NCBI GenBank assembly: GCA_000004985.1
Contig: GG738853.1
Source of the DNA: Naegleria gruberi
Lineage: Eukaryota
Length of the DNA: 64,000 bases
Strand: one strand, 5' to 3'
Every line of letters begins with the position of its first letter. The stretch's first letter is position 1. The translations under genes and the position numbers were made by a program. This document shows positions 1 through 18,760 of the stretch, one piece after another. Below the pieces are notes generated by a model. It searched no databases and was not told the origin of the DNA. It saw nothing but the letters and a program-made list of their open reading frames with translations.

Positions 1-1659
1 AATTCTATCCAAAAAGCTGGACAGTGCTCTTTCCTTCAAATACAAAGCAATTAATAATTTTACAAATGCACTATAGTTGGCATACCTATACTTTGGGAAT
101 AAATATTGCTTAGGGTAAACTAAAAAGAGAATACCAGAAATCTTTTCTAATGAATCTAAAATCCAAGAATCAATAGTATCCAATTCCAAAATAATATTTG
201 CAAAAGCAGACAAAAATGAAGGAATATGAGAAACTGATTCTTCTAATTGTTCTTGACTTCTAGTTAATAATTGATCACTCAATTTCATTAGTTGTCTCAA
301 AATCATCTTAGTATCACTTTGAGTTAGGAATTTTTTCATTGGTAATGCAAATTGTCCAAAACTTCTAATAGCAATGCTTAGGTAGTATTTGTTAAAGGTT
401 GGATTGGTAGTTGGAGGTGAGGAAGTTCCACTTCCTTGAGTCATTGTAATATCTGCAAAATTGAGTGATAATAAAGATTTGAATTTTTGCATCAGATTTT
501 TAAATGTCCTCAAGTTGGATTCTAATTTTCTCCCTCCTTCACGTACAAGTTCATAGGAAATTTGAGCTAAAAAGCTTTCAAGTGCTGGAAATGAATTCTT
601 TCTAACCTTGTCATTTCTGTGAGAACATAGAGTTGACAATCTGTCAAACATCTTTTCAGCATCAACAGTGAGATATTCCTTAAATTGATAAGCATGTTTT
701 GAAATCATAATTAGAGCTGCTTTAGGTACATCATATCTTGTTTCATTGACAAGTTCCAAACTTGTACAAATTAATTGATAAAGTGGTTTAATATATGATG
801 ATCCTTCCTCTACAGAGCCACCAAATTGTGACAAGAAATGAGAAAGCCCTCTAAATGTTGATGCAATAAGTTGTGGTTCTGGTTTAGCCTTTTTTGATTG
901 ATTCAATAATGTATTCATCAAGAGTGATAACATTTGTTGTTGATACATGTGAGTTTCTCCTGGGAAGTACTCACACAATACACCTAACAAATGCAAAATT
1001 GCTCCTTTTACAGATTGATTTCCACTATTTGTCATTCTTTGAAACTCTTTGAAATAAACTTGAAATACTTCCTTGATGTTTAAACTTGTTTCGGATTCGG
1101 CTGGTGATCTTGTTATTGTTGTTTCATTATTATTGTTATTATCATCCTCCATCAAATCACCTTCCTGTTGTTGTTGGTTAGCAGCTGTTGTTAAAGATGA
1201 CGATGAAGATGATTTGATTAAACTTGATCCATTTTCCATCAAAATAATTAATAATTTAATCAGTGGTGCTATTGTTGATAATCTAACTTGGTTCGAACTT
1301 TCACGTCTAAAAACATTGACACACCACCGTTTAATGATGAGAGCCTGTTCTAAAATTCTCTCCCGAGCAATCTTGATATAATTTAAAAGAAAATCAAAGA
1401 TGGCCTTCCTACTCAATGTCATTGTCTTGTTACCTTGTGTGCTTGGATAGAGTGTTATTGATTGATGAACATAGGCAAATATACCCTTTTCCTCATGAAA
1501 TAAAACACTCGAACACAGACCAATGTCATCGGGTGATAATCTACTAACAAAATCATTCATATCTGATATGATCGATATTGGGTTCAATAGAGCCATTGAC
1601 TTTTCTCCATCTTGCAACACAATGTGAAGATCAGAGAGATTTCTCTCAAGGGCTTGCAT
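1..1659 (-). CDS. Large uncharacterised protein, N-terminal ~553 codons (partial; the 3' end lies beyond the window start). Predicted helical/ARM-HEAT-like. Family not recognised.
   Basis: I reverse-complemented 1..1659 by hand and found an uninterrupted reading frame. It starts at the ATG at 1659..1657, which is preceded by an in-frame TAA: MQALERNLSDLHIVLQDGEKS...ILHLLGVLCEYFPGETHMYQQQ...LFPKYRYANYSAFVKLLIALYLKERALSSFLDRI. An open frame this long would not occur by chance in AT-rich DNA. It was absent from the supplied ORF track, presumably because it has no stop inside the window. The antisense ORF 1073..1381(+) is rejected. Confidence 0.7.
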   Translation of the reverse strand, partial: MQALERNLSDLHIVLQDGEKSMALLNPISIISDMNDFVSRLSPDDIGLCSSVLFHEEKGIFAYVHQSITLYPSTQGNKTMTLSRKAIFDFLLNYIKIARERILEQALIIKRWCVNVFRRESSNQVRLSTIAPLIKLLIILMENGSSLIKSSSSSSLTTAANQQQQEGDLMEDDNNNNNETTITRSPAESETSLNIKEVFQVYFKEFQRMTNSGNQSVKGAILHLLGVLCEYFPGETHMYQQQMLSLLMNTLLNQSKKAKPEPQLIASTFRGLSHFLSQFGGSVEEGSSYIKPLYQLICTSLELVNETRYDVPKAALIMISKHAYQFKEYLTVDAEKMFDRLSTLCSHRNDKVRKNSFPALESFLAQISYELVREGGRKLESNLRTFKNLMQKFKSLLSLNFADITMTQGSGTSSPPTTNPTFNKYYLSIAIRSFGQFALPMKKFLTQSDTKMILRQLMKLSDQLLTRSQEQLEESVSHIPSFLSAFANIILELDTIDSWILDSLEKISGILFLVYPKQYLFPKYRYANYSAFVKLLIALYLKERALSSFLDRI

Positions 1660-1844
1660 GATGGTAAAATAAATTAATTTTTTTTTGATTTAAAATTTGG
1701 AGGGAAATGATTTTATCCAGAATGTGATTGAATCTTTGAGATTATGGAGCCATTTGCAAAAGAAAGTCTCAGTGTTGTTAAATAATAATAATTATTGTTT
1801 GGTACAATTTAATATCACAGAGAATTTACAAAATAGTTACAAGT

Positions 1845-4405
1845 TTAGAATTTGAGCAAATTAGAAGTAGAGGCCTTCTTTGGTGGTGGTAAGAATTCTT
1901 CTTCCTCTTCTTCCTCTTCCTCCTCTTCTTCTTCTTCTTCCTCCTCTTCTTCCTCTTCCTCTTCCTCTTCACCTTCAAGTTCTTCACCCTCTTCCTCTTC
2001 TTCTTCTTCCTCCTCTTCCTCTTCTTCCTCTTCACTGTCATAGAAGTTGTCGATATTATCATCGTCACCTTCTTCTTCCTCTTCTTCGGACTCGTATTCT
2101 TCACTTTCTTCCTCTTCTTCTTCTCCATAGAAATCATCAATATCTCCAGTGAAAAGTTCAGAAGATGTTTCTCCAATAGCACCAACATCAGCTTGACCAT
2201 CAGTAGCAGCCACGACATTTCTTTCCTCATAGTTGAGTGTTTCAACTGGGAAATCGGGCAGAGGAGTGTATCCTGATGTTGAGTGGTTGAGTATGTGTGA
2301 TAATGAACCCAATAAGAATCTAGCACGATCTTCAACGAATTTACTGTTAAGAGAAACAGAATTCTTCTTTCCTGATGACCCAAAGATTTCGTCCGACTTT
2401 TCATGAAGTGTACTTGTTGTTCCCTTTGGATTAAACAAGATATTTCTCATAAATCTGGCACGATCACGAACATCGTAACTTTGATCGTAACGAGCCAAAT
2501 TCAATACGTATTGAATTAACATGTTAATTTGTTCTGATTTCTTATCTCCAGTACTTTCTAAACTCAAATAAAGTTTTGTACTCAAATTCAATGCTTGCAA
2601 TTTAACCAAGTCATCTTCTTTAACAAAGTCTTTAGCTAAAATACGAAGAGCATCAGCAGCAACACCAATACCAACACCTCCTGATGGAAGATATTCAATA
2701 TATTCACCAATCATATAAGCAATACTTGCTCTAGCAATTGGAACCTTAATATCATCCAAAAGAATAGCCATTTGAAGAATAATCTTCTTGTTATCTTCTG
2801 GGTTTTGTTGAAGCAATTGGTGAATAGCAATAATAGATTCAGCAACAATGTGTTCAGAACCTTTGGTAATCAAATTCATGAGAGTTCCAATACAAGATTC
2901 AACAACTTCTGGAATCTTTGAAGCAACTCTGCCCATAGCTTTGATAGTATTATTAACAAAATCTTGTTCTGGGAATTTAACATATGTTCTAAATTCCTTC
3001 AAAATACTATGAACAGTTTCGTCTGTGGCAAGAAGTGACAAAATTTCCAATTTCAAATTTCTTACATAGGCTGGATCACTAGCATAAATAAAGAAATCCT
3101 TCAAATGGTTACCAAAAACTTCTGGTCTTTCTCTAGCAATTGTTGAAACTGACATTAAAACAATGTAAGCATTTTCACGATATGATCTCAAAATTCTCAA
3201 AAGTGGAGTAACACATTTCAATGAAAATTCTTGTCTTGGTGACAAGTAGAAATGTAAATTAACAACCATTAAAACAACTGCAGAGTTTCTAGTTCTTAAA
3301 AGTGGTGCAGTAGATCTGAGTAATAATCTGTGATCTTGATCAAGTTCCATTTCTGCTCCTGGTTCATATCCATCATCGAAAATTTCCTTGTTTCCATCAT
3401 GATCTCCTTCTTCATCATCTTCGTCATCATAGAAAGCACGTTTCTTATAAGTTTCTCCCTTGAATGGTGATTGGAAATGAGTACGACCATATCTCAACAA
3501 CATTTGCATAATAGAACATTGTCCCCATTCATCACAATCAACCAAATATCTACATAACTTTCTAAATACAGGGTGAATCAATTCATAATTTGTTGGACAA
3601 ACTTCATTGAAAGCGTGAACAGCAGCTCCCAAAACCATTGTGTTATTATCCTTTAACAATTCTCCAATTAGTTCGGCACATTCAACAGCCAATTCTTCAG
3701 GAGATTGTCTAAATACTTTAATAATACCAAGAGCAGCAGCCTTTCTAACATATGGACTCATATCATGGAGACACTTTTTGATTCCGACAAGAATAACTGT
3801 GGTAATATCTTGTACGTTCAAACTGGACATGACTCTCAAAGCCAAAGCTCTCAAGAATTGATTCTTATCATCAAGATCCTTTTGGAAGTTGTTAATTGAA
3901 AGCAATGCTTCTTCTTGTTTTTGTTCAGCAAAGTGAACAAGATACATGTACACTAACTTTTTCAATTCAACATTCTTTGTAATACAATTCTTGACAACGT
4001 ATGGGAAGAGAGGTTCGACTTCCTTGCCTGATGAAGCCATCTATATATTTTAATTATTATTTAAATTGTTGTTGTTTGATGAACAATTAAATTATATATT
4101 GTTGTTAACACGATATATAAATATCACCAAGATCATCAATAACAAGATCCAAAACGATAAAGTACAATTAGTCATCAGTCAAATTATCATATTATCCACA
4201 ATCATCATCAAAAAATCCACACAAAAGCACCATCATCAAAAAAACCATCTAAAAAATCTTCACTTACAGCAATAACCTTCTTCATACCAACCAACTTGTC
4301 TCTGAAATTATTAGAATCCAATTGTTTGGTAATCTCATCGAACTTGGCTGTATTCGATTCCTTAAAGTATTTACTATCACCTCCCAAAACTCCTGTGTAA
4401 GACAT
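1845..4405 (-). CDS. AP-3 adaptor complex beta subunit (AP3B-like). Two exons: complement(4268..4405) + complement(1845..4040), 777 aa. Ends in the acidic hinge with no C-terminal appendage domain.
   Basis: Exon 1 encodes MSYTGVLGGDSKYFKESNTAKFDEITKQLDSNNFRDKLVGMKKVIA. It is followed by a GTAAGT donor (plus 4267..4262) and a 227-nt intron ending TATATAG. Exon 2 starts MASSGKEVEPLFPYVVKNCITKNVELKKLVYMYLVHFAEQ. Close matches to human AP3B1 from memory include [75 protein letters not shown] and LGTLSHTLN. The coding sequence totals 2334 nt, which is divisible by 3. Confidence 0.9.
1878..2150 (-). repeat. Coding (GAA/GAG)n trinucleotide low-complexity tract (plus strand TTC/CTC) encoding the poly-Glu tail of the AP-3 beta gene; long homopurine.homopyrimidine stretch
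   Basis: The plus strand from ~1884 to ~1966 consists almost entirely of T and C (ttcttcctcttcttcctcttcctcctc...). The translation is EEEEEEEE... with occasional G/S/L/Y/D. Reading the same DNA in the other frames produces poly-S, poly-L/P and poly-K/R pseudo-ORFs. Confidence 0.9.
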
Positions 4406-4902
4406 TTTTTAAAAACTGATAATTATTAAAAAATAAATCTTTGCTGATGCAACACGACTCCGCTTCCAACTCCCAATTCTAACGACTAGAAAATTTTGCC
4501 ACTTGGCAATAGCCAATTAGAAGATAAGTGCTGGCTGCCTAAGGTGAAAGATTTTTCAACATTGCCTGAGAACATGTTTATTGTTAGATGAAATATTGTT
4601 CTTCCGAAAGTTGAAGGAAGAGATAACAAATATTAGCAAACTAAATTAACAACCAGAACTGTTTATAAAGAACAATGAGAAAGCTGTGCTTCAAACAGAT
4701 AATCATGAATTAATTCATTAATATTTTGAAGAATGAGTAGGAAATATTGTTGACCTAAGATAATTGTGTTCAGGGTTGCCAGGTTTAGATTATCCATTGT
4801 TAAACTGCTGTGCTTGTTTAACATAACTGTTTGGCTGACAATAACATCGTATTAATTGAGTCACTTGTCAAACATAATGACCCAATAATCATTAAAAAAT
4901 AA

Positions 4903-5302
4903 ATGCCAACACAATCAACCTCCTCTAATGATGCTTCCAATAACTATGAACCCATCCTGCAACAAGCAGAACAAATCATCCAAAAACGTTTTCTCATTCC
5001 CTACCAAGAGAAACTCAATCAATTATTAGGAGATAGAGGAAGTATTTCTCCAAACAATTCAACTTCGTCAAATCCATCTACATCTTCAGCAACACTTCCT
5101 CCACTCCAATTAATAGTAAATTGGTCTAGTATTAGAGATTTAATCAGAGAATATCCTGTTAATGGTCTTTCCATTGCTGAGAATGCTATTCAAATATTAC
5201 AAGAACCATCTTTATATGAAAATATGAGGAAAGGTGTGATGAGATACATTTCCGAAGATAAATTACAGAGAACTATATTTAATGATCAGGTAGATGTTAT
5301 TT
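4903..5302 (+). CDS. Hypothetical protein, 5' ORF/exon. Probably exon 1 of the gene that continues at 5743..7262 (see findings). It may instead be an independent gene ending at the in-frame stop at 5380-5382.
   Basis: The ORF starts at ATG 4903 (MPTQSTSSNDASNNYEPILQQAEQIIQKRF...). A strong GTAAGT donor lies at 5303-5308, directly after codon ...DVI plus one base (phase 1). Amino-acid composition is non-random and the ORF lies in the divergent promoter context opposite the AP-3 beta gene. Confidence 0.5.
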
Positions 5303-5742
5303 GTAAGTGTTGCTGTGCTTATCTAATATATTCAATGATTGCGAATTGTCTTTCTGATGATTTATATTTGATGATTCTGTGAAAATGTGGTTGTCTATTA
5401 TTGATAATGTATTGCTGTGCAAAACACATGATTCTCGAAACAAAATTGTTGAAACACTGATTTTATTGGCATGACAATTTACAAATCGGTATTGTGAAAT
5501 TTGATGGAATTTTTTAACAACAATAACCTCGTCTCTAATACCTTTACTCTCTATATTGAAATATCATCATTGACACATTCTATTCACAAACATTTAACAA
5601 CTATTCCAATTTGAATCACAATTGTGGATAATGACACCATTTACTTGTTACTTCTCTTGATTATAATGATGACAATGAATGGTTGACAAATAATAATAAT
5701 AACAACACACTAACTAAACCATATCACAATAACAAACAACAG

Positions 5743-7262
5743 GTATTGACTTTTTTGCAGGAGGACTCAAGAGAGGAGATCAAGGATCTGAAGAGGAAAC
5801 ACTCGGAGAGGAAACAATGGTTGGTCTCTCTGATGAACATGAAGGTCATTTACTGTATATGATTAATGCCAGTACTCAGGAAATACTTGCATCGAGTACA
5901 TTTTATGAACATATTGAGGAGAGTTTTGATGAATTGTTGGAAACTCATCAACAAATATTGGAAAAACAAACAAGTAGTATTTCAAATCAAAAACAAAAAA
6001 CCAATCAATCCATGAAATCCATGCCAATTCAAAGTGGGATTGGAGGAGTAGCTTCAAAATCAAGCCCTCAACTCTCCACTTCACCACTCAGTAGAGGTAG
6101 CAGTGTCATTTTGAGCTCTTCACCAAATGCTCAACAGAGAAGTGCTCTCTCCAGACAAACATTTATGAGCTCTCCAAATTCAGCCACCACTCCAATCTCT
6201 CCTAATGATTTAACAACTGGAAAATCCAAGCCACCACTAAGAAGAATGTCATACGTCTATGATCCTAAGCATTTGGATGATGACGATTTGATTGGAAGTT
6301 CTACCTCAATGTCACACATTAATCCTGATACATTGGCTAGTGATTCGGATTTGGATAAAATTGAACAATTGAGACGTGTATGTCTTCATCCACATATTTG
6401 GGAAAAGAGAGATGTTTCCAAGTTGATTAGAATTTTACAAAATGAGGATCTTCGTTATTGGAAACCAAATTCTGAGCAATCAGTCATGATTGAAAAATCA
6501 GTTGAACAATTGGAAGCTAGATTTAAGAAATTTGCATCCAATGAAAAAATTGTCAAGGCGTGGATGATTACAAAGATTAATAGAAAGAGTTTGAAACAGG
6601 AGAGAGTTTTCGTCTTGACTGATTCCAAATTCTATACAATGAAATTCTCAAAGGATATTGATGAAAAGCATATCAAGATGTATCCTCTGAGTGCTGTAGC
6701 CATGATGGATTGTGCCAGATTTATTCCAAATAAGGATAAGAAGAAGAAACCATACGGTCTGGCAGTTTATATGGATGAAGAAAAAGTATCATCCGGTTCC
6801 AAAGTTAATGGAGATGAAGCTGAAACACATACCTATCTTTCACATGATGATAAGAAAAAGAAGAAGAATCTCTCTCAAAAAGTCATGGGTAAACTCCGTA
6901 AGGAAAAGACTCTCCAGACCAACTATGATGATTCCTTCGATGATGATGGTGATAGCTCTTCTATGGATGCTTCTCGTAGAGGAACAATTGTGGAAGAAAT
7001 CTCTCTCGAAGAAAAGTCACAACTCAGACCAGACACTAGTAATTTGGTAGCTCAATATTTCATGTCATGCAATACTGTTCACCAAAGTGAAGACCAACGT
7101 GAATTCCTGATGGAAATTTCATGGGCTATCTTTGCCTGTTGTAGTGCATTGAAAGGTGAACAACAACTCGTGCCATTCACACAACATCAAATCAAGAGAC
7201 CAAAGAAGGATTTGGTTGGCACCTACTTGTATAATAAGCTCAGTATTGGTATGAAGAAATAA
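5743..7262 (+). CDS. Hypothetical protein with a PH-like domain segment (KAWMITKINRKSLKQERVFVLTDSKFYTMKF...MYPLSAVAMM). The ORF starts at ATG 5817 if it is an independent gene, or at the 5743 acceptor if it is joined to 4903..5302.
   Basis: The ORF 5817..7262 is 481 aa long. It contains Ser-rich and Lys/Asp-rich low-complexity segments plus globular segments. The in-frame upstream extension back to 5743 has no stop, so it can be joined in phase to the 5302 donor. The combined length 400+1520=1920 nt is divisible by 3. Confidence 0.65.
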
Positions 7263-7693
7263 ACAAGCACCAATTTTTTTCAACAAGTCTTTACCACAGT
7301 AGCATAATTTGAACTAATCTTGATATCTCTTAATAATAAAAAACTTCTCTTCATGTTCCACTACAATCCCTCCTCACAAACCATCAACCTTCCAGTAGTA
7401 ACATCACAATGAAAATTAAACTGTTTATCTCAATCGACAAATTCATAGAGAATCTCTTCAACAAATTTCTCAAACTCTTTTCAAGTCCCCACCTCTCTGA
7501 GGAAAACGAGAAATTAATTTGTACATCGTGATGGCTGTTTTGGTCCGAAAAAAATCCTCACTCACAACTCTCTCTCACGCAGCACACGGAGGCAGTAGAA
7601 GACGAAGTTAGTTCTTCTTTTTTGAATTTCCCCCTTTGGTCTATTTGCCGTTACATCATCATACCCCCAAAAGACAACATCTTTTTGTTTTTT

Positions 7694-7705
7694 ATATATA
7701 TTTAA
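7694..7705 (+). promoter_or_regulatory. TATA-like element (tatatatattta) ~125 bp upstream of the pfkB-kinase ATG
   Basis: TATATATA motif in the intergenic region 7263-7824. No other supporting evidence. Confidence 0.25.
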
Positions 7706-7824
7706 TATAACTACTCGACTACTAATACTGCTACTAGTTTGATAAGCTAAGAAGAATTGTACATTTTCTCCATAATATAATATCGTCATCTTTTAAACCC
7801 GAATAATATTTACATCATCATACA

Positions 7825-9454
7825 ATGACAACCGTTCCAAATATTGCTTCATCATCCCATAAACAACCATATAATGTTTTGGGTCTCGGACAGCCTTTAC
7901 TGTAAGTATTAATACTTTGCAAAGTAGTAGAATGAATTTGTGGTTTATTTCAATGCCATATCATGATATGTTATTATACAATGGCAACAATAACATTATT
8001 AAAATCAAAGTGACAAGATGTTCTTTGTCACTGAACAAACTCTTCAAGCTCTCGGTATTAAAGAAAAAGGTGGTTCACAACTCATTGAAACTCAACAAGA
8101 ATTAGAAGCATTTTTACAAAAACTTTCAGAATTACTTCAATATGACTGTAATCATTGTTTAGATCACCCAAATATATCTCCTAGTGGAAATAATATGTTT
8201 ACCAACTCTTCCGTGAAATCAGGAGTTAAAATTCCAAATGGAACACCAACAAAAGATAGTAATAATCATTTGATTGCTGCATATTCACCAAAGACAGCTA
8301 ATTTCCATCGTAGTTTGAGTCAATATCCACGTGGTTATATCTGTAGTGGTGGTTCTTGTTGTAATACAATTAAGGGAATGTCTGGATTGGGAGAATCATG
8401 TGCTCTTGTCGGAAAGATTGGTAATGATCCACTTGGTGTTCTTTACAGAAACCACTTGACTAAACGTCACGTATTCCCACTCATGTCTATGTCACCTCTT
8501 ACTAGAACAGGAGAAGTCATTTGTCTTATTACTCCTGACGGCCAACGTACCATGAGAGCCTTCTTGGGTTCATCATTGGAAATGACTGCTGATGATTTAG
8601 TTCCAAGTGATTTCCAAGGAATTAAATTATTACACGTAGAAGGTTATGCCATTTATAATCAACCATTAACATTGAGAGCTATTCAATTAGCTAAAAATGC
8701 TGGTGCTATGATTAGTTTCGATTTGGGAAGCTTTGAATTGGCTAGAGGATTTAAACCATTGATTTTGGAATATCTTTCCAATTATGTGGATATTGTTTTT
8801 TGTAACTCTGAGGAAGCTCGTGAATTACTTGGATATGAGGATGCAGAAGGAGCTGTTGATTATTTGGCAAGTTTCTGTCGTGTAGCTATTGTAATGATGG
8901 GCAAGGATGGTTGTTGGGTCAAGGAAGGAACCACATCAGGTAAAACATCAGGGAAAGGAGAAAAATATAGACACCAATTGTCTGAGGAAGAAGTTGTTTT
9001 ACACCCATTGGATACAACTGGTGCTGGTGACTTGTTTGCTGCTGGCTTTTTGTATGGATATATTCAAGGATATAGTATGGAACAATGTGCTCGTTTAGGT
9101 AGCTTGAATGCTCGTGAAGTTGTTCAAGTTATGGGCGCAGAAGTTCCAGCTGATAAATTCAAGGAAATTAAGGGTGGTGTTAATAAGGATTTCCGTGTAC
9201 GATCATCAAGTAATGCTGGTACTGGTAAATCAGTTCCAATTAGAAAGAAGGAAGGTACAAGTGCTAGTTCCTCATTAGCTGGTAGTTTTGAAGAATTCAA
9301 ACATCAAAAGATTGGAAGTGCTAATTTTGAATATGAAATTGCATTTGAACATGATGAAGAATATGAAGAATATGAAGAAGAAGAAACAGAAGAAGATTTG
9401 GATGATTTGGATGAAACCGATTCAAAGAATGATGCCTTGTTTGCCCTCGAATAA
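7825..9454 (+). CDS. pfkB-family carbohydrate/nucleoside kinase (adenosine-kinase/ribokinase-like). Two exons: 7825..7901 + 8011..9454, 506 aa.
   Basis: Exon 1 encodes MTTVPNIASSSHKQPYNVLGLGQPL(L). It ends at a GTAAGT donor (7902-7907, phase 2). Acceptor ...CAAAG ends the intron at 8010, which restores LGQPLLD, matching the adenosine-kinase N-terminal GMGNPLLD motif. Exon 2 carries a GGSCCN glycine motif. It also carries the pfkB signature-2 DTTGAGDLFAAGFLYG near the C-terminus. Total coding length 1521 nt (507 codons including the stop) is divisible by 3. Confidence 0.85.
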
Positions 9455-9535
9455 TTTCCTCCAACAAAAATTAATTATTAAATAAAATAAAAAGTAAATA
9501 ATTTAAATTCAAATGTAAATCACAATTTAAAAAAA

Positions 9536-9781
9536 ATGATACCAGTCAATAACAGCTTTTTGCAAAAGCTCATCAATATGGGCATTTCCGTTCTGAAGAA
9601 GGAAGCAGCAAATAGATTGGCTGCAAATCAAAAATTTCAAGAATTTGTCCACAAGACTGAAACACAAAAAGTGAACATGACCAAACCTGAAAATATAGGG
9701 AAGGTGAAGGATTTCGGAGGACACTTTTTTACTGAATTAAAAACCATCTTGAGAGAGATGAATCCTTTTGCTAGAAAATAA
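9536..9781 (+). CDS. Small hypothetical protein (81 aa). Family not recognised.
   Basis: The ORF has balanced, non-low-complexity composition (MIPVNNSFLQKLINMGISVLKKEAANRLAANQKFQEFVHKTE...). It lies ~80 bp downstream of the pfkB stop on the same strand. It could equally be 3'UTR, so confidence is low. Confidence 0.35.
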   Translation: MIPVNNSFLQKLINMGISVLKKEAANRLAANQKFQEFVHKTETQKVNMTKPENIGKVKDFGGHFFTELKTILREMNPFARK

Positions 9782-10070
9782 TTATATTGTCACACAGTCA
9801 CGTAAAATTATTATCGAACGGAAATTGTTGGATGTAGTAGCATCAGTAAATTAGAAATTATTTGTCTCCTGTGATGAGAACAATAAAGTTAAATAATCGG
9901 AAGGTTGGTTTAATTAATTTGGAATGATAGATAGTTTGCACATCACTCTATCATTTTAATCTTAATATTCCTTCCACAAGTAATAATGGAAATTATAGAT
10001 TATCATATCTCATTAGTAATGTCTAATTTCTTGTTCGCAATTATCAAGCTCTTCTTGGTAATTAATCCAT

Positions 10071-11368
10071 TTAATGTGTTGCTGCTTTATTCTTGTTTTC
10101 TTTCCTCTTTCTTTTCCAAACATTGAACTTTTTCTTAATGCTGTGAATCCAATCGACGATAACTTCTGCAATTAATCCAATCATGATAGATTCAAACCCA
10201 AGTCCAATAATAGCAAAGAACATGAAGAATATCTTGCCTCCTTGAGTTGTAGGATAGAAATCACCATATCCAATTGTTGCCAAGGTCACAAAGACATACC
10301 ACGCAGATTCATTATAAGTCCATCCTTCGAGTGCCATCATAATTGCAGCACAAGTAAAGGCATAGGCCAACCAGAAAAATGTATAGTATCCTAATTGAAC
10401 TGATGAACTGAAAAGAATTCTATAAACCAAATCAGTTTTCTTCATTTTCACGTCTGTTTTCCTTATGAGTCCAACAAGTGCGTAAATTCCCATAGAAATT
10501 AACAAGAGAATGTTCTTTACAAATCCTGTAGTGGTTTTACCTACTGTTACAAGCAAGGTACCCATAATTGCAATACCAATTAATCCAAAGAAACCAATAT
10601 AAATTCTGCCACCTGTCAAACTGTTAAGAATTAAATGTAAAATTAATACATACCAGCTGTTTTGTAAAATTGTCATCCCTAACTTTAAACTATGAAATAC
10701 TTACGAGTTGAAGCTGCCATATCACCATAACCAATTGTAGTAAATGTCACAAGACAATAGTAAACAGAATTTCCATATGTCCACTTATCCAATCTCACCA
10801 AAGTACCATTTTCAACTAAGGTCGACCCGTTATTTCGAATTCTCTCCAAATATTCATTTCCACCTTCAATTGCCCAAATAGGCAAAGCAGAAAGCAATAA
10901 AAATCCAATAATTAAAAGCGTCATGCCAAGTAAAATTCCAACATTTGTTAAACCTTCTCGATAATGATAAGTGGCATATTTATCCTGAGCGTGATACTTT
11001 TTAAATCTTCTCTCCACAAACTCGAATGTAAAATCAGCCACTCTCAACTTTTTTTCTTTCATCTGATCTTTCAGACCATCATCTGGATCAAAATTATCAA
11101 TCACAGCTTTAAACATTGCATAATTCTCTTCATTCAATTCATAACTTTGCAAGAATTGTTTTTCTCCCAATTCTTCCTCATTCACCACACAATAATATCC
11201 ATCACTACCACCATTACCATTATCATTACCATCACCAATATTATTCTTATTCTTATTAGTATCATCATCTTCAATGGAATTTGTATTCTGATGATCCTTC
11301 AATTCAACATTCTGATCATCTTGCTGAGTTGTTGATCCATCCAACCCACCCGACATTGATCCATCCAT
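10071..11368 (-). CDS. Two-pore-domain potassium channel (K2P/KCNK-like, 4TM/2P). Two exons: complement(10705..11368) + complement(10071..10612), 401 aa.
   Basis: There are two pore signatures: VTFTTIGYGDMAAST and VTLATIGYGDFYPTTQGGKIFFMFFAIIGLGF. Hydrophobic M1-M4 segments are present. A GTAAGT donor (plus 10704..10699) lies immediately after the first filter (phase 1). The 92-nt intron ends ...TTTGACAG. The reconstituted junction reads ...YGDMAAST-R-GRIYIGFFGLIGIAIMGTLL, which is the expected M2 helix. Total coding length 1206 nt is divisible by 3. Confidence 0.9.
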
Positions 11369-11929
11369 AATTGTTTAAACTGTTTTTTCTCAATTTATCT
11401 TTTACCGAAAAATGATGAAAAAAAACCTCAGTAAGCCAGAGTTTGATGTTTTTCTATTTTTTTTGGTTTGTTGAGAGCGGGAATCTAAAGCTGAGTTTGT
11501 GGGATTTTGAAGAGTTTCGGAAGCAATTCAATTGGTTGAGTAGAAGGGTTGGTTCCTTGGCAGTGATTCGTTTTGCATGTTCATGGGGTGATTTTAGTTT
11601 ACAATGTTTTTTATCCGCTATTAATTAGGAAAAGTCCGAAATGTTTGCTGATTTCTGTTCTCTAATTTTGTAAAATGTCTACAGTAAAAGCTTCAAAATA
11701 CAGGTTTTGATTCGTCCTAAGTGAAATTAATAATTAGTTTCGAATTTTGTTACAATAATTCCTATTACTTATTAGAAATAATTCAATGCTGTGTTCGGTT
11801 TTTAATCGGAAATATTTTTGACGGAAACTGTATTTTAATCAAGTTAACACACTTAATAACGGAAAGAGAAAAGTTTCGAACGATTTCGAATAACAAACCA
11901 CATATTCCACCAACATTGGTATTGCTAGT

Positions 11930-13357
11930 ATGTTGCTATACTGTAGCTTGTTACATCTCTTGCAAAGATCATCACAATATTTCCCACAAATATTTAATAT
12001 TTTAAAATGGGAATCAAAAGAAGCAAGTGGTCACCTTGAAAGGTATTCGAATTGTAAAAACCACCAATTTAAACCAATAAAAAAAAACAATGCCTCCAAA
12101 CAAACAACTTGTCAGCTTCTTGCTGTACTACTCTTGGTTTCGCTCTTTAATTTTTCCCTTTTCACAGCAGGAGCAGCAACGCAAAGTTCAATGGTCAATT
12201 TACCAATTTCTTCATCATTGACATTGTCAACTACACCATTTCTTCACAATCATTATAAGAATCGTCATTCACTTGTAATTACATTGGAAGAACAAGTTAA
12301 TGCTTTAATCCAAAATGAAAAGATTATTCATCTTCCTGCATCAATTTTTCAATTCGCCACAGATGGCAATTTTTGGCAGACATATGGTAATTTGGTTATT
12401 GTGATTATTGTACTTTCAGTGTTTATTCTGTTTTTGGTATGTCTTGTGCTGCCAATGATTTTGAGTTGTGGTGCCTTGTGGATTTTTAAATGTTGCCTTC
12501 ATTCGGCTAATTTAGGACCTCGTGAAGAGAGTGAACTAATTGACCAACAGTATTCACGTCTTGCGCAGGTTACTCTTGATCCAGGATGGAAAACTCGTGT
12601 CAGGTATAGACTATTCGATGTCAATTTTACAGATTGTGCTATTTTAATATTTTGGTTATTGTTTTGGCCATTTAGAAAACTTAGTTGTGGAATATTTGAC
12701 AGTTGTTTCATATTGAGAATGACAAGATTCAATGTAAGAAGAATGAGGGTTGGAAACAGAAGGTTGGATTTGCATATTTCAGACGCATGTTGCACCATCC
12801 CATTCATTCACTTTTTAAATAATTTTTGTAATTTTTACACGTTTGGATTGTGGAGAGCACTTGGACTCTATCATCGATTCTATCTTTCAAGAATTGATGA
12901 AAGAATTTATTGGAAACCAATCGAAAATGATGGAAGATATGAATCACAAGTAGTGTGGCAAAACTTTTCAGAAAAAAACTCATTCAGATGGTTTAGTATT
13001 TATTGTGGTTTGTATACAGAATTGCTGTATTGGTTTTTGAAAGTTATCAATGTTTTCGCTTTATTCCTCCTTGGACCATTCATTGAGGCATGGTATATAA
13101 GAAAACGAGTTCAGTATTCCAAATTTGGTGGAGTTGGATCATTTGCAGTGTACAGTAATGGATCTTTACAAGCATTGGTTGCGAATTCTCCAAAGGTTTT
13201 GACCCTGTCCAATTCAATCAGTGGATGTTCCTATTTTACAAGAATTTTAATTTATAGATTGTTGAATTTAATTACTCTGGGAATATTTGGATGCGTTGTT
13301 GGTGGAGATCGATATTTTCTTGGATTTATCGATGAGCATTTGTATCTATCAATGTAA
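11930..13357 (+). CDS. Hypothetical Cys/Trp-rich integral membrane protein. Start uncertain: the alternative start is Met88 at 12191.
   Basis: Long ORF of 475 aa. It contains a signal-peptide-like or TM segment (LLAVLLLVSLFNFSLFTAGAATQ), a clear TM segment (LVIVIIVLSVFILFLVCLVLPMILSCGALWIF) and further hydrophobic stretches. It lies in divergent orientation to the K2P gene. Confidence 0.6.
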   Translation: MLLYCSLLHLLQRSSQYFPQIFNILKWESKEASGHLERYSNCKNHQFKPIKKNNASKQTTCQLLAVLLLVSLFNFSLFTAGAATQSSMVNLPISSSLTLSTTPFLHNHYKNRHSLVITLEEQVNALIQNEKIIHLPASIFQFATDGNFWQTYGNLVIVIIVLSVFILFLVCLVLPMILSCGALWIFKCCLHSANLGPREESELIDQQYSRLAQVTLDPGWKTRVRYRLFDVNFTDCAILIFWLLFWPFRKLSCGIFDSCFILRMTRFNVRRMRVGNRRLDLHISDACCTIPFIHFLNNFCNFYTFGLWRALGLYHRFYLSRIDERIYWKPIENDGRYESQVVWQNFSEKNSFRWFSIYCGLYTELLYWFLKVINVFALFLLGPFIEAWYIRKRVQYSKFGGVGSFAVYSNGSLQALVANSPKVLTLSNSISGCSYFTRILIYRLLNLITLGIFGCVVGGDRYFLGFIDEHLYLSM

Positions 13358-13553
13358 TTAGTATTTCAAAGGTTACTTGGAATACGAAACTATCCTAAAC
13401 TACCTTTTATTGTAACTGATAAATCAATTAGCAATATAGAATAGTTAGGGAGGAATTCTTCTGGAGCAGTTATGGAGCTTGATTATTGGTCAAGAAGAGC
13501 TTGAACCATTTATAAAACCTTTCAATTCACTGGAGTGTTGGATCATTACGAAT

Positions 13554-14681
13554 TCAGAATGTTATGAATGAAAGATCGTAAAATGTTGAATTACTCAATT
13601 GACGTCTAAGTAGTGAAAAGAAAAATATTTCTTCTGGAGATTTAGCAACTGTGAAAGTTTTTCTATAGATATAGCCATGCCAAGGACCACATACAATAAT
13701 TTCCTGTTCATCATTAATTGCTTCTTGTGGAATTTGAGCAATACAAAAATGAGTATCCGTTTTTACACCAGTTGACACACTAGTACAGTACACATCTTTG
13801 AATGGCCCCTCAATTTGAATACGTTGAAATTCTTTTACTGGACCAGACGCTCCAACCGATAATCCACATTGATTACTAGAATTTAGACCTCGACAGAATA
13901 TTTGGCCATCTTCCAATAGTAGAGCAATGTGAGCAAATCCTGTATCAATCTTTTTGATTTCACAAGTGAACGATAATTTAAGCTCTTTCGTTTGGTACGC
14001 GTTTCCTTCGTTCATAAATCCAAATCCAATATTTCTAATGAACAATCTATTGTTTTTTAAGAGAATGAATTGGGCTGTACCATTTGAGCAACAAGAAAAT
14101 TGTTTCACTTGGTAATCAGGAAGTGGGAATCCGATGTCGAATGCTTCAGTATCAACTTCTTTTTCATAAATAGTTCCATCAATTGTCTGAACTAACCAAC
14201 AGGTTGACATGATTCCACTTCCAACACAATGAATTAATGAACTGTGCGAGATAAAGAATTTGTTCATTTTCAATGCTTGAGTATCGAATTCAAACAAAGA
14301 TCCGTCCATCATTTCAAATAATATGAATCTTGCATTATTTGAAACAACTCTCTTCATCAATTGACCTCTTTTACAGTTGCTCAACTCGGGTAACAGTGAA
14401 CTAAACTTCATTTTCTCTCCCATTATCACAAAATATTCACTCTCCTCTCCTTCAAACAGAAACATTGAATAATTAGGGGCTTGATTACTTCCACCACAAC
14501 AAATATACGAAACTCGTATTAATTCATTTGCTTCAATCTCGGAAGGAGAAAAATTATTTTCTGGATGAGGAAATATTAAAGGCCTAATTTCCACAACATC
14601 CCATTCGTATTCAATCCCATCTGTCCACACTTTAGAGTCATTAAATTTTGTGTGGGATTTCATTCCGAAGGCTTTGATCAT
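13554..14681 (-). CDS. Hypothetical protein with degenerate RCC1-like (beta-propeller) repeats, 375 aa
   Basis: It has repeated G-x-N-x-x-x-Q-C/L-G-like units ([49 protein letters not shown]) at the spacing typical of RCC1 blades. It is intronless. Its ATG at 14681 faces the cenH3 gene across a 74-bp promoter. Confidence 0.6.
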
Positions 14682-14716
14682 TTTTTTTGTTTTTGTTAAT
14701 TAAAGAGTTAATAAAT

Positions 14717-14730
14717 TTTTGGCGCCAAAA
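14717..14730. promoter_or_regulatory. Perfect 14-bp palindrome TTTTGGCGCCAAAA (E2F-type site TTTGGCGCCAAA) in the bidirectional promoter between the RCC1-like gene and the cenH3 gene
   Basis: Read directly in the sequence. It matches the consensus of the palindromic E2F/DP site. It lies 35 bp from one ATG (14681) and 26 bp from the other (14756). Confidence 0.5.
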
Positions 14731-14755
14731 TTTTGAAAAAATCAATACAGAAAAA

Positions 14756-15575
14756 ATGGCTCAAAAGATGAAAGAGTGTTTGAGGGAACCTCAGTTGAGC
14801 ACAACTGATCAACAATTTGGTGAGCAAGGCTTTGAAAGGTTTGATGTAGAGTTTTTTGGTGAGAATGAAGTTTCGGAGAGGGCTTTTGAGGAATTATTCG
14901 AAGATGATTTGGATATGAGTGAGAATAATTCAATGATTTCTTCATTCCCTGTATCCGATCAGCACCAAGAAGATGAGAAAGGAAAGCAAGCCATTGCAGA
15001 AGAAGAACAGCAAGAACCATTGGAAACAAGAAGGCATGGAGAGATTGTCACTCAACCAAAGAATAATCAGATCGGGTTAAAGACAAGGTTATTATATGCT
15101 CAGAAGGCTCCTAGAAAATCTATCAAACAATTTCCTCAGAAGGCCCCAAAGAAATCAATTAATTGCAGAGGGAAACCTGTGAAGAAGCCTCGAAAGTGGA
15201 AGAAAGGTACAGTAGCTTTGAGAGAAATCAAAAAGTATCAGAAAGGAGTCGAATTGTTAATTCCTAAAGCTAATTTTGTTAGGCTTGTGAGAGAAATTGC
15301 AAACTCTAAGAGACAAGATGATCCTCTCAGATTCAGTGCAGAGTAAGTTTCTAATTATTATAATATCCTATAATGAGTTATGAAGTGCCTTGTTAGCTCT
15401 GCAAGAAGCTGCAGAACATTACCTTGTAAATTTGCTTGAGGACTCTTATTTGTGTGTAAGTTTTTCTAAATTATTAAAATAATTTCTTAATGATCCTTCT
15501 TAGGCTCTTCATGCAGGTAGAGTAACATTGATGAAAAAAGATATTCAACTCATAAAAAGATTATTGGGCTTGTAG
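14756..15575 (+). CDS. Centromeric-type histone H3 variant (cenH3/CENP-A-like). Three exons: 14756..15342 + 15386..15455 + 15504..15575, 242 aa.
   Basis: The ~170-aa N-terminal tail is divergent and acidic/Gln-rich. It is followed by an H3 histone fold: [100 protein letters not shown]. Loop 1 is 2 aa longer than in canonical H3, a cenH3 hallmark. The two introns are 43 nt and 48 nt, each GTAAGT...AG. Total coding length 729 nt is divisible by 3. The first ATG of the supplied ORF (14687) is rejected in favour of 14756 (AAAATGG) because 14687 lies 6 bp from the neighbouring gene's start codon. Confidence 0.8.
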
Positions 15576-15576
15576 T

Positions 15577-16941
15577 TTACTTTCTGGATGAAAGACAAAC
15601 AAGACCATAATCGCCACTATATCTCCAATTGCTGACAGTTTCCTTGACGCTATTAAACTTTTCCATATCCTTAATACCAATCAGTGAGTAACTCTTAATT
15701 GTTCTCAAACTGCAAATACCATTCTTGGCAGGGAAATATTGCAAAGTTTGATTAAAATCTTGTTCGATTGGCAATTTGGCATCATTGATTGTTCTTCTAT
15801 AGTTTGCATCTCCCTTGATGAAAATAAATTCAAAGTCATTTCTCAATTCATTGGCCAAATCTTGTGGTATTTGGGTATATTCGAGTGGAGAAGTAAAGAA
15901 GGTATGCTTTTTGAATTTCCATTGTTGATTATCAATATATTGAGAGAATCGCTTGCCATATTCACCAATAATACCTTCATGATCTACGAATCGTGAGATA
16001 GTTTGTTGGAAATCTCTTTCAGTAACATCACTCACAAAGACTGGTTGATATTTACCAAAGAATGTAACACTGTCAATAAAGTCCAATCTCAATAAGGTAT
16101 CAGCCATGAACATGTCACTCACAAGTTCTAAACCAACATTATCAAGAATGATGGCCAAATGTCTTGTTCCCTTCTCCTTCAATTTGATATTGTCCAAAAT
16201 TTTAACAACCTCTGTCAAATCATTTGACAAGATATTTTCCTCTAAACTCTTCTTAAACTTTTCGGTATGATTTTGAAGTCCAGTTGACAAGCTTAAATCG
16301 GCTTGATTTCCCCACAAACTCAATACAATACTTTCTCTCACAAGACTCAATATCTTATCTCCTTCGGTTGGCAATTCACTCAACAGCTCACAAAATTGTT
16401 GAGCGACAGTCTTTTCAGACTTGGAGTTAAAAACAACATCTAAAGACTTTTTCTTTTGATTACCGAAAGGATCCCATCTCAACAATGGTGAATCAGCTTT
16501 CCAAAATTCAGTAATATCCAAAATCAATCTATAAAAGTAATTCTCCACGAAGAACCAAGTCATTTCCAACCAATTTTTATCCTCAACACCAAACATCTTT
16601 TCATATTTGGCCCAATTTTCCAAATCAGCCCTCACATTCTCATCATCAACAGCTTGATCAGCCTTTAGAGAAATTCTCAACTTGGTACAAACATCTCCTT
16701 CAACTAATTCCTCTTCCAATGCTTTTAACTTGTGCAATATTTCGGGATGTTGTTGTAGTAACTGTTCCTCCTTGTTGGATTCAATCATGGATTGAAGAAT
16801 CTTTGGCAAACGTTCAATGATGGAAATGTAGGTAAAACCTCCATCCATGCCGATCAATGGTTTCCCATCATCATTATGATTTTCCCATGAGAGTAGATGT
16901 TCACGATCGGAAGGTGAAAGACGATGTTGTTGTGTTGCCAT
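15577..16941 (-). CDS. ARMT1/DUF89-family protein (damage-control sugar-phosphate phosphatase / C6orf211-like), 454 aa, intronless
   Basis: DUF89 motifs are recognised: ...DYF.., SLWGNQADLSLS, AIILDNVGLELVSDMFMADTLL (the metal-binding D-N...E...D), FFGKYQPVFVSDVTERDF, IFIKGDANYRRT and CSLRTIKS. The length is similar to human ARMT1. Confidence 0.8.
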   Translation of the reverse strand: MATQQHRLSPSDREHLLSWENHNDDGKPLIGMDGGFTYISIIERLPKILQSMIESNKEEQLLQQHPEILHKLKALEEELVEGDVCTKLRISLKADQAVDDENVRADLENWAKYEKMFGVEDKNWLEMTWFFVENYFYRLILDITEFWKADSPLLRWDPFGNQKKKSLDVVFNSKSEKTVAQQFCELLSELPTEGDKILSLVRESIVLSLWGNQADLSLSTGLQNHTEKFKKSLEENILSNDLTEVVKILDNIKLKEKGTRHLAIILDNVGLELVSDMFMADTLLRLDFIDSVTFFGKYQPVFVSDVTERDFQQTISRFVDHEGIIGEYGKRFSQYIDNQQWKFKKHTFFTSPLEYTQIPQDLANELRNDFEFIFIKGDANYRRTINDAKLPIEQDFNQTLQYFPAKNGICSLRTIKSYSLIGIKDMEKFNSVKETVSNWRYSGDYGLVCLSSRK

Positions 16942-16996
16942 TTTTTTTGTATTATTTTAATATTTAAATAGTTAATATTTATAAATATATTTAATA

Positions 16997-17575
16997 TTAA
17001 TTTTTGGATAAAATCTTCACTGGTCGATTATTCTCCTTCTTTCTTGGACACGCATATCGTGTAACAATCTTAAATTCATGAGTAAATTCCTTCTTAAAAG
17101 TCTTTTTACTCGTTCCAATGTAAAATCCCTTAAATTCTGAATCCTCATCACAAACCAGGAAACATTTGGCTCCATGTAATTCACCTGCCAAACTCACAAA
17201 CATATCAAATTCAACAATGACTCCATTTTGAATATGTTTAGGATCGAAAAGTGAAATTCTGGGTCCAGGTTTTCCAATACCAAAACATCGATCAAAATAA
17301 TTGTCAATGAAAGCAATTTGAAATTGTCCTTGATTGGTGGTGGCATAGCATGAGGCATTGGTGGAAGTTACTGGCTTACACAAATTAAGCATGTAATAAT
17401 TTCCTGGCAAGTGAAGAGTGTCAATAATTTTGTGGCCAGTGGTGCCATTGTCAGCTTTGGAAAAATCAATGATCATTCCATCCTTTTCAATGAAACAATT
17501 CTGAGAGAAGACAGTTGTGGAGATGAAGATGAGTAATATGCAGAAAGAACAGATGAATAAGTGTGAGAAATGCAT
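16997..17575 (-). CDS. Small secreted protein (192 aa) with an N-terminal signal peptide and a Cys pattern reminiscent of an MRH (mannose-6-phosphate-receptor-homology)-like domain. Family assignment is tentative.
   Basis: MHFSHLFICSFCILLIFISTTVFSQ has a signal-peptide shape. Conserved-looking Cys/Gly/aromatic positions follow (LNLCKP...CYATT...FDRCFGIG...CFLVCDEDSEF...YACP). The ORF lies 55 bp downstream of the ARMT1 start on the same strand. Confidence 0.55.
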   Translation of the reverse strand: MHFSHLFICSFCILLIFISTTVFSQNCFIEKDGMIIDFSKADNGTTGHKIIDTLHLPGNYYMLNLCKPVTSTNASCYATTNQGQFQIAFIDNYFDRCFGIGKPGPRISLFDPKHIQNGVIVEFDMFVSLAGELHGAKCFLVCDEDSEFKGFYIGTSKKTFKKEFTHEFKIVTRYACPRKKENNRPVKILSKN

Positions 17576-18056
17576 GCTTTTTTTTTCAGTTTTTGAGTAT
17601 GAGATCCATGGATCTGCTGAAACGTTCGCTTCTTTCGAATGTAATTGCTACTTGCCAAATTTAAAAGATTTTGGATTCAATGGACGAGCTGCATTAGAAA
17701 GTTTACCAATCATATTATAATCAATGTAAATAATTGATTACAATGAGTAATTGGTTGCAGTTAGAAAGAGAATAAGTTTTTGAGTTTCATCTTGATGGAC
17801 TTTTTCTTTTTGAAAAGCTGGTTATGGGACATACTTGTGACTTTCGAACAGGAGAAAATATGAGGTTGTGATGGTGTTAACACTAACTGTTCCAATGTTG
17901 TTGAATTTCTATTCTTTTTGAATAAATTCAGTTTAGACGAAGATCTATTCGAAACATTGGGCGAGAAGAAATCCATTCCCTTACTCGTTCCAATTCTCAA
18001 TTTCAAAATAATATCCATTAAATTTGAAATATCTTTTGCAATATTTTGATCTTTGG

Positions 18057-18106
18057 NNNNNNNNNNNNNNNNNNNNNNNNNNNNNNNNNNNNNNNNNNNN
18101 NNNNNN
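18057..18106. other. Scaffold gap (50 N)
   Basis: Run of exactly 50 n characters. Confidence 1.
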
Positions 18107-18214
18107 GGATTTGTATTGACTATTTCATTGGCTGGTTATTCCATTTTTTGCATTATCTTTGTGGAAGATAATTTCCAAAATTAGTAATTTTTATAAATAT
18201 TAAATTTGTGATTC

Positions 18215-18760
18215 TTAATATTTAATAATATAATTAAGAACCAATGATGGTTGCATATTTTCATGAGCTGAATTTCCACCAACTTCATTGGTTGTGAAAT
18301 TGTGAGTATGATTGGCTCCTGTAAAATTATCGTCATCCTTATGAGTAGCTGGACCTCCACACCATCCTGGAGTATGGAAAACATCAGAAATTGGTCCAGA
18401 TTGATGAACTATAATGTAAGGTTGTTTGTTGGCTTTTCCAGTGGTTCCTGAGTGTGAATGACTTGGTAGTTCACTAATTTGCAATTGGTGAGATTCTTCT
18501 CCAACTTTTTGAGCTAGAGTTCTATTGGAAAGTCCAGCTCCGTGACCAATTCCAACAACTGCTCTTCCCCTGAGGTCGGGAACATTGAATGAGTGAGGTC
18601 CTCCTGTACTTCCATATGCATTTCCAATAGTTTGAAACAATCGAATATAATCTGGATGACTATTCGGATAGGTGGCTCCATCACACAATAACCAACCTGC
18701 TGGTATAGTTGTTCCAGCAAATGCATTCACAATACCAACAGGAATTATAATTTGAGATTC
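18215..18760 (-). CDS. Phage tail-collar-domain protein (PF07484-like; MdpB / T4 gp12-like short tail fibre C-terminal region). 5'-partial: the ORF is still open where it meets the N-gap at 18761.
   Basis: Translation: ...ESQIIIPVGIVNAFAGTTIPAGWLLCDGATYPNSHPDYIRLFQTIGNAYGSTGGPHSFNVPDLRGRAVVGIGHG...SHQLQISELPSHSH...ENMQPSLVLNYIIKY*. It has the canonical tail-collar motifs: P.G.I..(F/W)AG...P.GWLLCDG, (L/Y)F..IG..YG, (F)N(L/V)PDLRGR...G and C-terminal QP..(L)NYII. The frame is open across all 546 nt up to the gap. Codon usage is AT3-biased like neighbouring genes. Confidence 0.75.
   Translation of the reverse strand, partial: ESQIIIPVGIVNAFAGTTIPAGWLLCDGATYPNSHPDYIRLFQTIGNAYGSTGGPHSFNVPDLRGRAVVGIGHGAGLSNRTLAQKVGEESHQLQISELPSHSHSGTTGKANKQPYIIVHQSGPISDVFHTPGWCGGPATHKDDDNFTGANHTHNFTTNEVGGNSAHENMQPSLVLNYIIKY

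Follow-up and report, generated by a model that had tools for sequence, protein, structure and literature searches.

The last eukaryotic common ancestor is inferred to have already had E2F, DP and Rb. Most of the mapping of their targets concerns animals and plants, and almost nothing is known about cis-regulation in the Heterolobosea. Human bidirectional promoters, short promoters shared by head-to-head genes less than 1 kb apart, are rich in E2F sites. The mammalian DHFR promoter contains overlapping inverted E2F sites (TTTCGCGCCAAA) that form a near-palindrome near the start of a TATA-less cell-cycle gene. Among the genes for centromeric H3, CENH3 of Arabidopsis is an E2F target according to Heckmann 2011 (Plant J 68:646), as cited in PMC4110626 and PMC5464667. 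Human CENP-A is classed among the CDE/CHR (DREAM/MuvB) targets and not among the genes with classical E2F sites, and the CDE/CHR element in its promoter is bound by DREAM and MMB-FOXM1 (PMC6314538). Lastly, a palindromic E2F/DP1 motif, [C/G]GCGC[G/C], is enriched genome-wide upstream of co-expressed clusters in Cryptosporidium parvum (Oberstaller 2013, as cited in PMC7840661). The prediction from which this work started had appealed to E2F control of centromeric H3 in both animals and plants; the plant part stands on the Arabidopsis gene (PMC4110626, which cites the original study), and the human gene is described as controlled by a CDE/CHR element instead (PMC6314538).

The window analyzed here is a stretch of 64,000 positions, of which positions 1-18,760 alone are real sequence, interrupted at 18057-18106 by 50 N; the remainder is N. 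It is the terminal part of a Naegleria gruberi NEG-M scaffold, and two ORF products encoded in it are identical to the NEG-M proteins EFC47810.1 and EFC47811.1. Our interest was in the head-to-head intergenic region at 14682-14755, a putative bidirectional promoter of 74 bp with 19% G+C, which separates a minus-strand gene with an RCC1 repeat from the cenH3 gene on the plus strand. All coordinates given in the original prediction were exact: the ATG of the minus-strand gene (read as CAT) lies at 14679-14681, the plus-strand ATG at 14756-14758, and the two genes do have the 74-bp gap between them in common. This is the shortest of the divergent gaps in the window, the others measuring 862 and 561 bp. 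Since both GenBank models flanking the gap are truncated, so that the annotated intergenic distance is about 800 bp, the figure of 74 bp needed checking. The analysis led us to correct both models, cenH3 EFC47663.1 and NAEGRDRAFT_64106.

The corrected cenH3 gene (14756..15575, plus strand) has its coding sequence at 14756-15342, 15386-15455 and 15504-15575, interrupted by introns of 43 and 48 nt (GTAAGT...AG), and encodes 242 amino acids, of which EFC47663.1 ("histone H3, partial") comprises only the final 125. Its N terminus, MAQKMKE, aligns with the MSQKQKE of the homologs in Naegleria lovaniensis (C9374_006153), Naegleria fowleri (FDP41_000195) and a metagenomic relative, and position 14756 is therefore supported as the true start. 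These homologs were found by searching cluster representatives with an exon-1 query and then running a three-sequence profile search; a full-length query was swamped by canonical and duplicated H3. The protein scan and the profile scan found no further cenH3 locus in metagenomes. One candidate, L008 (P0272), was rejected as a Naegleria cenH3, being a GC-rich duplicated H3 that adjoins a retroelement.

The product matches the Pfam Histone family (E = 1.2e-12), and its histone fold is 61% identical to H3, while the long, divergent N-terminal tail, about 140 amino acids ahead of the histone-fold region, can be aligned with nothing but the tails of cenH3 proteins from other Naegleria. A long loop 1 and the loss of Gln68 and Thr107 are the hallmarks of cenH3 set out by Malik and Henikoff. 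Loop 1 exceeds that of H3 by two residues in each of the three Naegleria sequences, which also carry Val or Cys in place of Gln68 of H3 and Ser or Ala in place of Thr107. The plus-strand gene thus carries the sequence hallmarks of cenH3, in agreement with the identity originally assigned to it, and we regard it as the probable centromeric histone gene. On its downstream side, cenH3 is convergent with an ARMT1-like damage-control phosphatase gene (15577..16941, minus strand; EFC47810.1), which serves here as context. The stop codons of cenH3 (TAG, 15573-15575) and of the ARMT1-like gene (TTA, 15577-15579) are separated by 1 base, and because of this the 3' UTR of each gene must overlap the coding region of its neighbor.

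On the other side of the gap, the minus-strand ORF (13554..14681) encodes 375 amino acids with one detectable RCC1 repeat and extends NAEGRDRAFT_64106 (EFC47809.1), which is annotated at 251 amino acids. The extended protein is 61% identical to a paralog aligned over 99% of its length, including the N terminus, where the first 16 residues match the MLKVYGEIFHTKF of the paralog. Furthermore, the gene as called independently in a sister strain of N. gruberi has its end at the position corresponding to 14681, and the substitutions between the two strains in this ORF fall mainly at third codon positions. The two starts are thus each backed by homologs, and with 74 bp between them the pair falls within the usual definition of a bidirectional promoter, that is, head-to-head protein-coding genes less than 1 kb apart.

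The name "RCC1-like" given to this minus-strand gene rests on one repeat, while seven RCC1 repeats make up the beta-propeller of RCC1. A single repeat exceeds the Pfam cutoff (RCC1_2, 26.3 bits versus 22), whereas the whole-domain model WD40_RLD reaches 24.5 against a cutoff of 150. The best PDB matches are stretches of about 37 amino acids in SRM1/RCC1, HERC1 and UVR8 (E = 0.002-0.1); the match to SRM1 covers 37 amino acids with an E value of 0.0017, and that to human RCC1 has an E value of about 0.1. Among 5.8 billion proteins, we found no homolog outside the N. gruberi lineage, the only hits being the protein itself and its one paralog. Judging from its sequence, the product is a lineage-restricted RCC1-repeat protein and not an ortholog of the RanGEF RCC1/SRM1. 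With one repeat, no RanGEF orthology and no homolog outside the lineage, a role in chromosome condensation cannot be inferred for it. The region upstream of the paralogous gene (L009) has no E2F motif.

The 74-bp gap contains the sequence TTTTGGCGCCAAAA at 14717-14730, which is, as had been predicted, a perfect 14-bp palindrome and an exact match to the E2F/DP consensus: TTTSSCGC is present on both strands, with TTTGGCGC at 14718-14725 (plus strand) and at 14722-14729 (minus strand), so that the palindrome consists of two overlapping inverted E2F consensus sites. These two are the only matches to TTTSSCGC in the 18.7 kb of real sequence, and the 14-mer itself occurs once in the window, even when one mismatch is allowed. 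The gap is 81% A+T, and the GGCGCC core accounts for 6 of its 14 G/C bases; given that the gap has only 19% G+C, the core stands out. The palindrome does lie between the two starts, 35 bp from the ATG of the minus-strand gene and 25 bp from that of cenH3, but it is not strictly centered, its midpoint being 5 bp to the right of the center of the gap.

A lack of E2F/DP homologs had been named as a reason to give up the idea of an E2F site. Both are present in N. gruberi, together with DEL and Rb; Medina et al. 2016 (PMC4862756) give the sequences NgruE2F, NgruDP, NgruDEL and NgruRB in their source data. Against Pfam, NgruE2F shows E2F_TDP and E2F_CC-MB domains, and NgruDP shows E2F_TDP and DP domains. 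The DNA-binding domain of NgruE2F matches human E2F4 in the DNA cocrystal 1CF7 with an E value of 7e-25, including a stretch of 24 identical residues, and NgruDP matches the DP2 of the same structure with an E value of 1e-28, NIRRRVYDALNVLMA being identical. In their RRxYD recognition helices, the N. gruberi factors do not differ from the E2F4 and DP2 of 1CF7. By sequence, the DNA-binding domains of the N. gruberi E2F and DP are nearly identical to those of the human E2F4-DP2 pair crystallized on DNA, and their specificity should therefore be the canonical TTTSSCGC.

Taken together, the quality of the match, the conservation of the factors, the position of the site and the Arabidopsis CENH3 precedent lead us to favor, with modest confidence, the reading that the palindrome is a functional, lineage-specific binding site of the E2F family in the cenH3 promoter, which may also serve the divergent gene. 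The palindrome would be bound by the N. gruberi E2F family, that is, by an E2F-DP heterodimer, by a two-domain factor of the DEL/E2F7-8 type, or by both. Placed in the putative proximal promoter, it would tie the transcription of cenH3 to cell-cycle entry through the Rb-E2F pathway. The same palindrome may also act on the divergent RCC1-repeat gene, an action on both genes being possible because the palindrome is symmetrical and lies only 35 and 25 bp from the two starts. That the site is bound by E2F, that it affects transcription and which of the two genes would respond are all points that we infer from sequence. Because the site is not conserved and the reading derives from sequence, we present it as a prediction.

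In its architecture, the Naegleria palindrome resembles the arrangement in the DHFR promoter, since in both cases two E2F half-consensus sites overlap in inverted orientation. It differs from DHFR, whose core is CGCGCC, by its GGCGCC core, by a symmetry that is perfect over 14 bp and by its occurrence in a heterolobosean amoeba. The locus has in common with A. thaliana CENH3 (HTR12) a centromeric H3 target, a canonical E2F consensus in the proximal promoter, which in Naegleria is a putative one, and a host equipped with E2F, DP and Rb. However, the Arabidopsis sites were tested experimentally, whereas the Naegleria site is a prediction; in addition, and unlike in Arabidopsis, there is a single palindromic double site, located in a 74-bp shared gap and absent from congeners. 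The likeness to C. parvum (as cited in PMC7840661) consists in a palindromic motif of the E2F/DP type, found where a protist with a compact genome has very little DNA between its genes. The Cryptosporidium motif was identified through its genome-wide enrichment, the Naegleria site from a single locus.

To see how far the arrangement extends within the genus, the cenH3 loci of N. lovaniensis (L002), N. fowleri (L003-L005), a metagenomic Naegleria-like organism (L006 and L007) and the sister strain of N. gruberi (L001) were compared. In N. lovaniensis, N. fowleri and L006/L007, cenH3 is flanked on the divergent side by a PAP2 phosphatase gene and downstream by NCA2; in these three more distant taxa it adjoins neither the RCC1-repeat gene nor the ARMT1-like one. 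Similarly, TTTSSCGC, with up to one mismatch, was not found in the upstream regions (135-190 bp) of the cenH3 genes from N. lovaniensis, N. fowleri and L006, and the cenH3 promoters of the relatives align with that of N. gruberi only at the start context AAAAAATG. Since both are missing in three distant taxa, neither the site nor the gene pairing extends beyond the N. gruberi lineage, and the proposed E2F site is accordingly not a conserved part of Naegleria cenH3 promoters. Like the E2F-rich bidirectional promoters of human genes, the locus has an E2F-type site in a short gap between head-to-head genes; it differs from them in that only 74 bp separate the two ATGs and that other members of the genus do not have the pair. 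The suggestion of a compact cell-cycle coregulation module, in which cenH3 would be joined to a regulator of chromosome condensation, is not supported, the partner of cenH3 being PAP2 elsewhere and the upstream site missing in three taxa.

The sister strain (metagenomic, 99% identical) differs at 29 of 2,846 positions (1%), and its palindrome is identical. Four of the 29 differences fall within 13 bp directly to the left of the palindrome, in a variable patch at 14702-14714, and none falls between the palindrome and the cenH3 ATG. The unchanged site beside these four changes gives weak support to the E2F reading; as the divergence is only 1%, the identity of the palindrome is uninformative on constraint. 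Among about 42 kb of fetched Naegleria-type loci, there was one other TTTSSCGC match, TTTTCCCGCCAA in L006, and with just one further match there is no sign yet of a wide use of the motif in the genus.

The first alternative to be weighed is that the palindrome arose by chance and does not regulate anything: it would be a GC-containing palindrome that came up in a spacer rich in A+T, perhaps during the rearrangement that juxtaposed the genes, and that E2F does not bind in vivo. This is in line with the absence of the site from three other Naegleria-type cenH3 promoters, and in the original prediction the motif was chosen with the sequence already in view, out of the many known motifs that could have been considered. 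When the window was shuffled with dinucleotide composition preserved, at least one E2F 8-mer was found somewhere in 29% of the shuffled windows (mean of 0.32 TTTSSCGC matches per window in 300 shuffles). Moreover, palindromes are generally in excess in the window, which counts against the E2F reading: we found 9 perfect palindromes of at least 14 bp, mostly intergenic, versus 2.1 expected from dinucleotide shuffles (maximum, 7). However, chance produces the double site much less often than one 8-mer, since at least two matches occurred in only 2.3% of the 300 shuffles, and the 14-mer with up to one mismatch occurred in 0 of 100. Extrapolated from the shuffle mean, the expectation for TTTSSCGC is about 1e-3 per 74-bp stretch, and the palindrome falls precisely in the 74 bp upstream of a gene known as an E2F target in plants. 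In addition, the cognate factors are present, with DNA-binding domains nearly identical to the human ones crystallized on DNA. Considering both sides, we regard a chance origin as unlikely, while giving it appreciable weight.

Alternatively, TTGGCGCCAA might be read by an unrelated dimeric transcription factor of Naegleria or, as a symmetric element of the core promoter, might set initiation in both directions without any tie to the cell cycle. The perfect dyad symmetry would fit any homodimeric factor, the 74-bp gap has to house two core promoters, and perfect palindromes of at least 14 bp are found in other intergenic regions of the window as well. On the other hand, neither the window nor the related loci contain a second palindrome of the GGCGCC type, and the flanking T and A runs, which would be superfluous for a reader of GGCGCC, complete the E2F consensus exactly. 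We thus consider a different factor improbable.

The case of human CENP-A suggests another possibility, namely, that the GC core and a nearby TTTGAA form a tandem element of the CDE/CHR type, which would be read by a DREAM/MuvB-like complex and would confer G2/M expression like that of human CENP-A, itself a CDE/CHR gene (PMC6314538). A CHR-like hexamer, TTTGAA, is indeed found at 14732-14737 (plus strand), 5 nt after GGCGCC on the cenH3 side, although its assignment is speculative. A similar layout occurs in L006 at 3511-3540 (L007, 2265-2294), where TTTTCCCGCCAA is followed after 8 nt by TTTGAA directly upstream of a gene for an EB1-like CH-domain protein. N. lovaniensis and N. fowleri do not have this arrangement in the orthologous regions, and we take it as a lead and not as evidence. 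The canonical spacing is 4 nt, as opposed to 5 nt from GGCGCC here and 8 nt in L006; it becomes 4 nt in N. gruberi if the CDE is read as GCGCCA. Furthermore, TTTGAA/TTCAAA is common in the window (2.7 per kb), with a 17% chance of at least one occurrence per 74 bp, and the hexamer is therefore not significant alone. The locus would share with human CENP-A, under the proposed E2F reading, a centromeric histone under Rb/E2F-related cell-cycle control, and it has a TTTGAA adjoining the GC core, but it differs in a spacing that is not the canonical 4 nt and in a TTTGAA that lacks statistical significance. A CDE/CHR-type element at this position is, in our view, very improbable.

Finally, that the self-complementary sequence would serve as an RNA hairpin in the 5' UTR or as a DNA cruciform rather than as a protein-binding site is scarcely credible, given that a 14-nt palindrome allows at most a 5-bp A/U-rich stem and that the RNA folds of the two strands (-2.8 and -1.6 kcal/mol) are weaker than those of shuffled sequences (z = +0.64 and +0.73), on which ground the hairpin was rejected.

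In kind, the proposed E2F family site would be a promoter element of the ordinary E2F type, in an understudied lineage. If the site works, it would provide a first candidate E2F target for Naegleria and a very small promoter for dissection, as well as an example of regulatory turnover, with sister species that do not have the site. A bolder version, which we hold to be improbable, is that the 74-bp bidirectional promoter depends mainly on this one symmetric E2F site as its sequence-specific element and that the site arose de novo via rearrangement. If so, this would be among the smallest eukaryotic cell-cycle promoters, and a rearrangement in the N. gruberi lineage would have brought a young RCC1-repeat gene beside cenH3. 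E2F control of the centromeric histone would then occur in Discoba and in plants, as an ancestral wiring that turns over rapidly or as one that was repeatedly reinvented. For N. gruberi, RNA-seq time courses of mitotic synchrony and of differentiation exist (PMC10802493).

Several other features of the window deserve mention. The overall composition is 34% G+C, with an observed/expected ratio of 0.44 for CpG and 0.82 for GpC. The depletion of CpG over positions 1-18760 is consistent with cytosine methylation in N. gruberi, and the palindrome retains a CpG, which speaks for the E2F reading. The nine palindromes of at least 14 bp include those at 2498-2529, 4705-4718, 7904-7970, 16975-16988 and 17602-17615, and three cluster upstream of a pfkB kinase gene. 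An E2F-like word matching 7 of 8 positions, GCGGGAA (TTCCCGC on the minus strand), was found at 11477-11483, in the 561-bp divergent gap between a K+ channel gene and an ORF for a 475-amino-acid membrane protein. This channel, of the two-pore type (Ion_trans_2; 10071-11368, minus strand), is encoded in two adjacent ORFs (10071-10676 and 10685-11368), which probably represent a single gene with a short intron or a frameshift. At the end of the scaffold, just past the N gap, an ORF at 18215-18730 (minus strand) matches the Pfam "Phage Tail Collar Domain" (E = 1e-16) and the baseplate domain "Gp10_C"; its G+C content of 36% is Naegleria-like, and it could be horizontally acquired, virus derived or a contamination.
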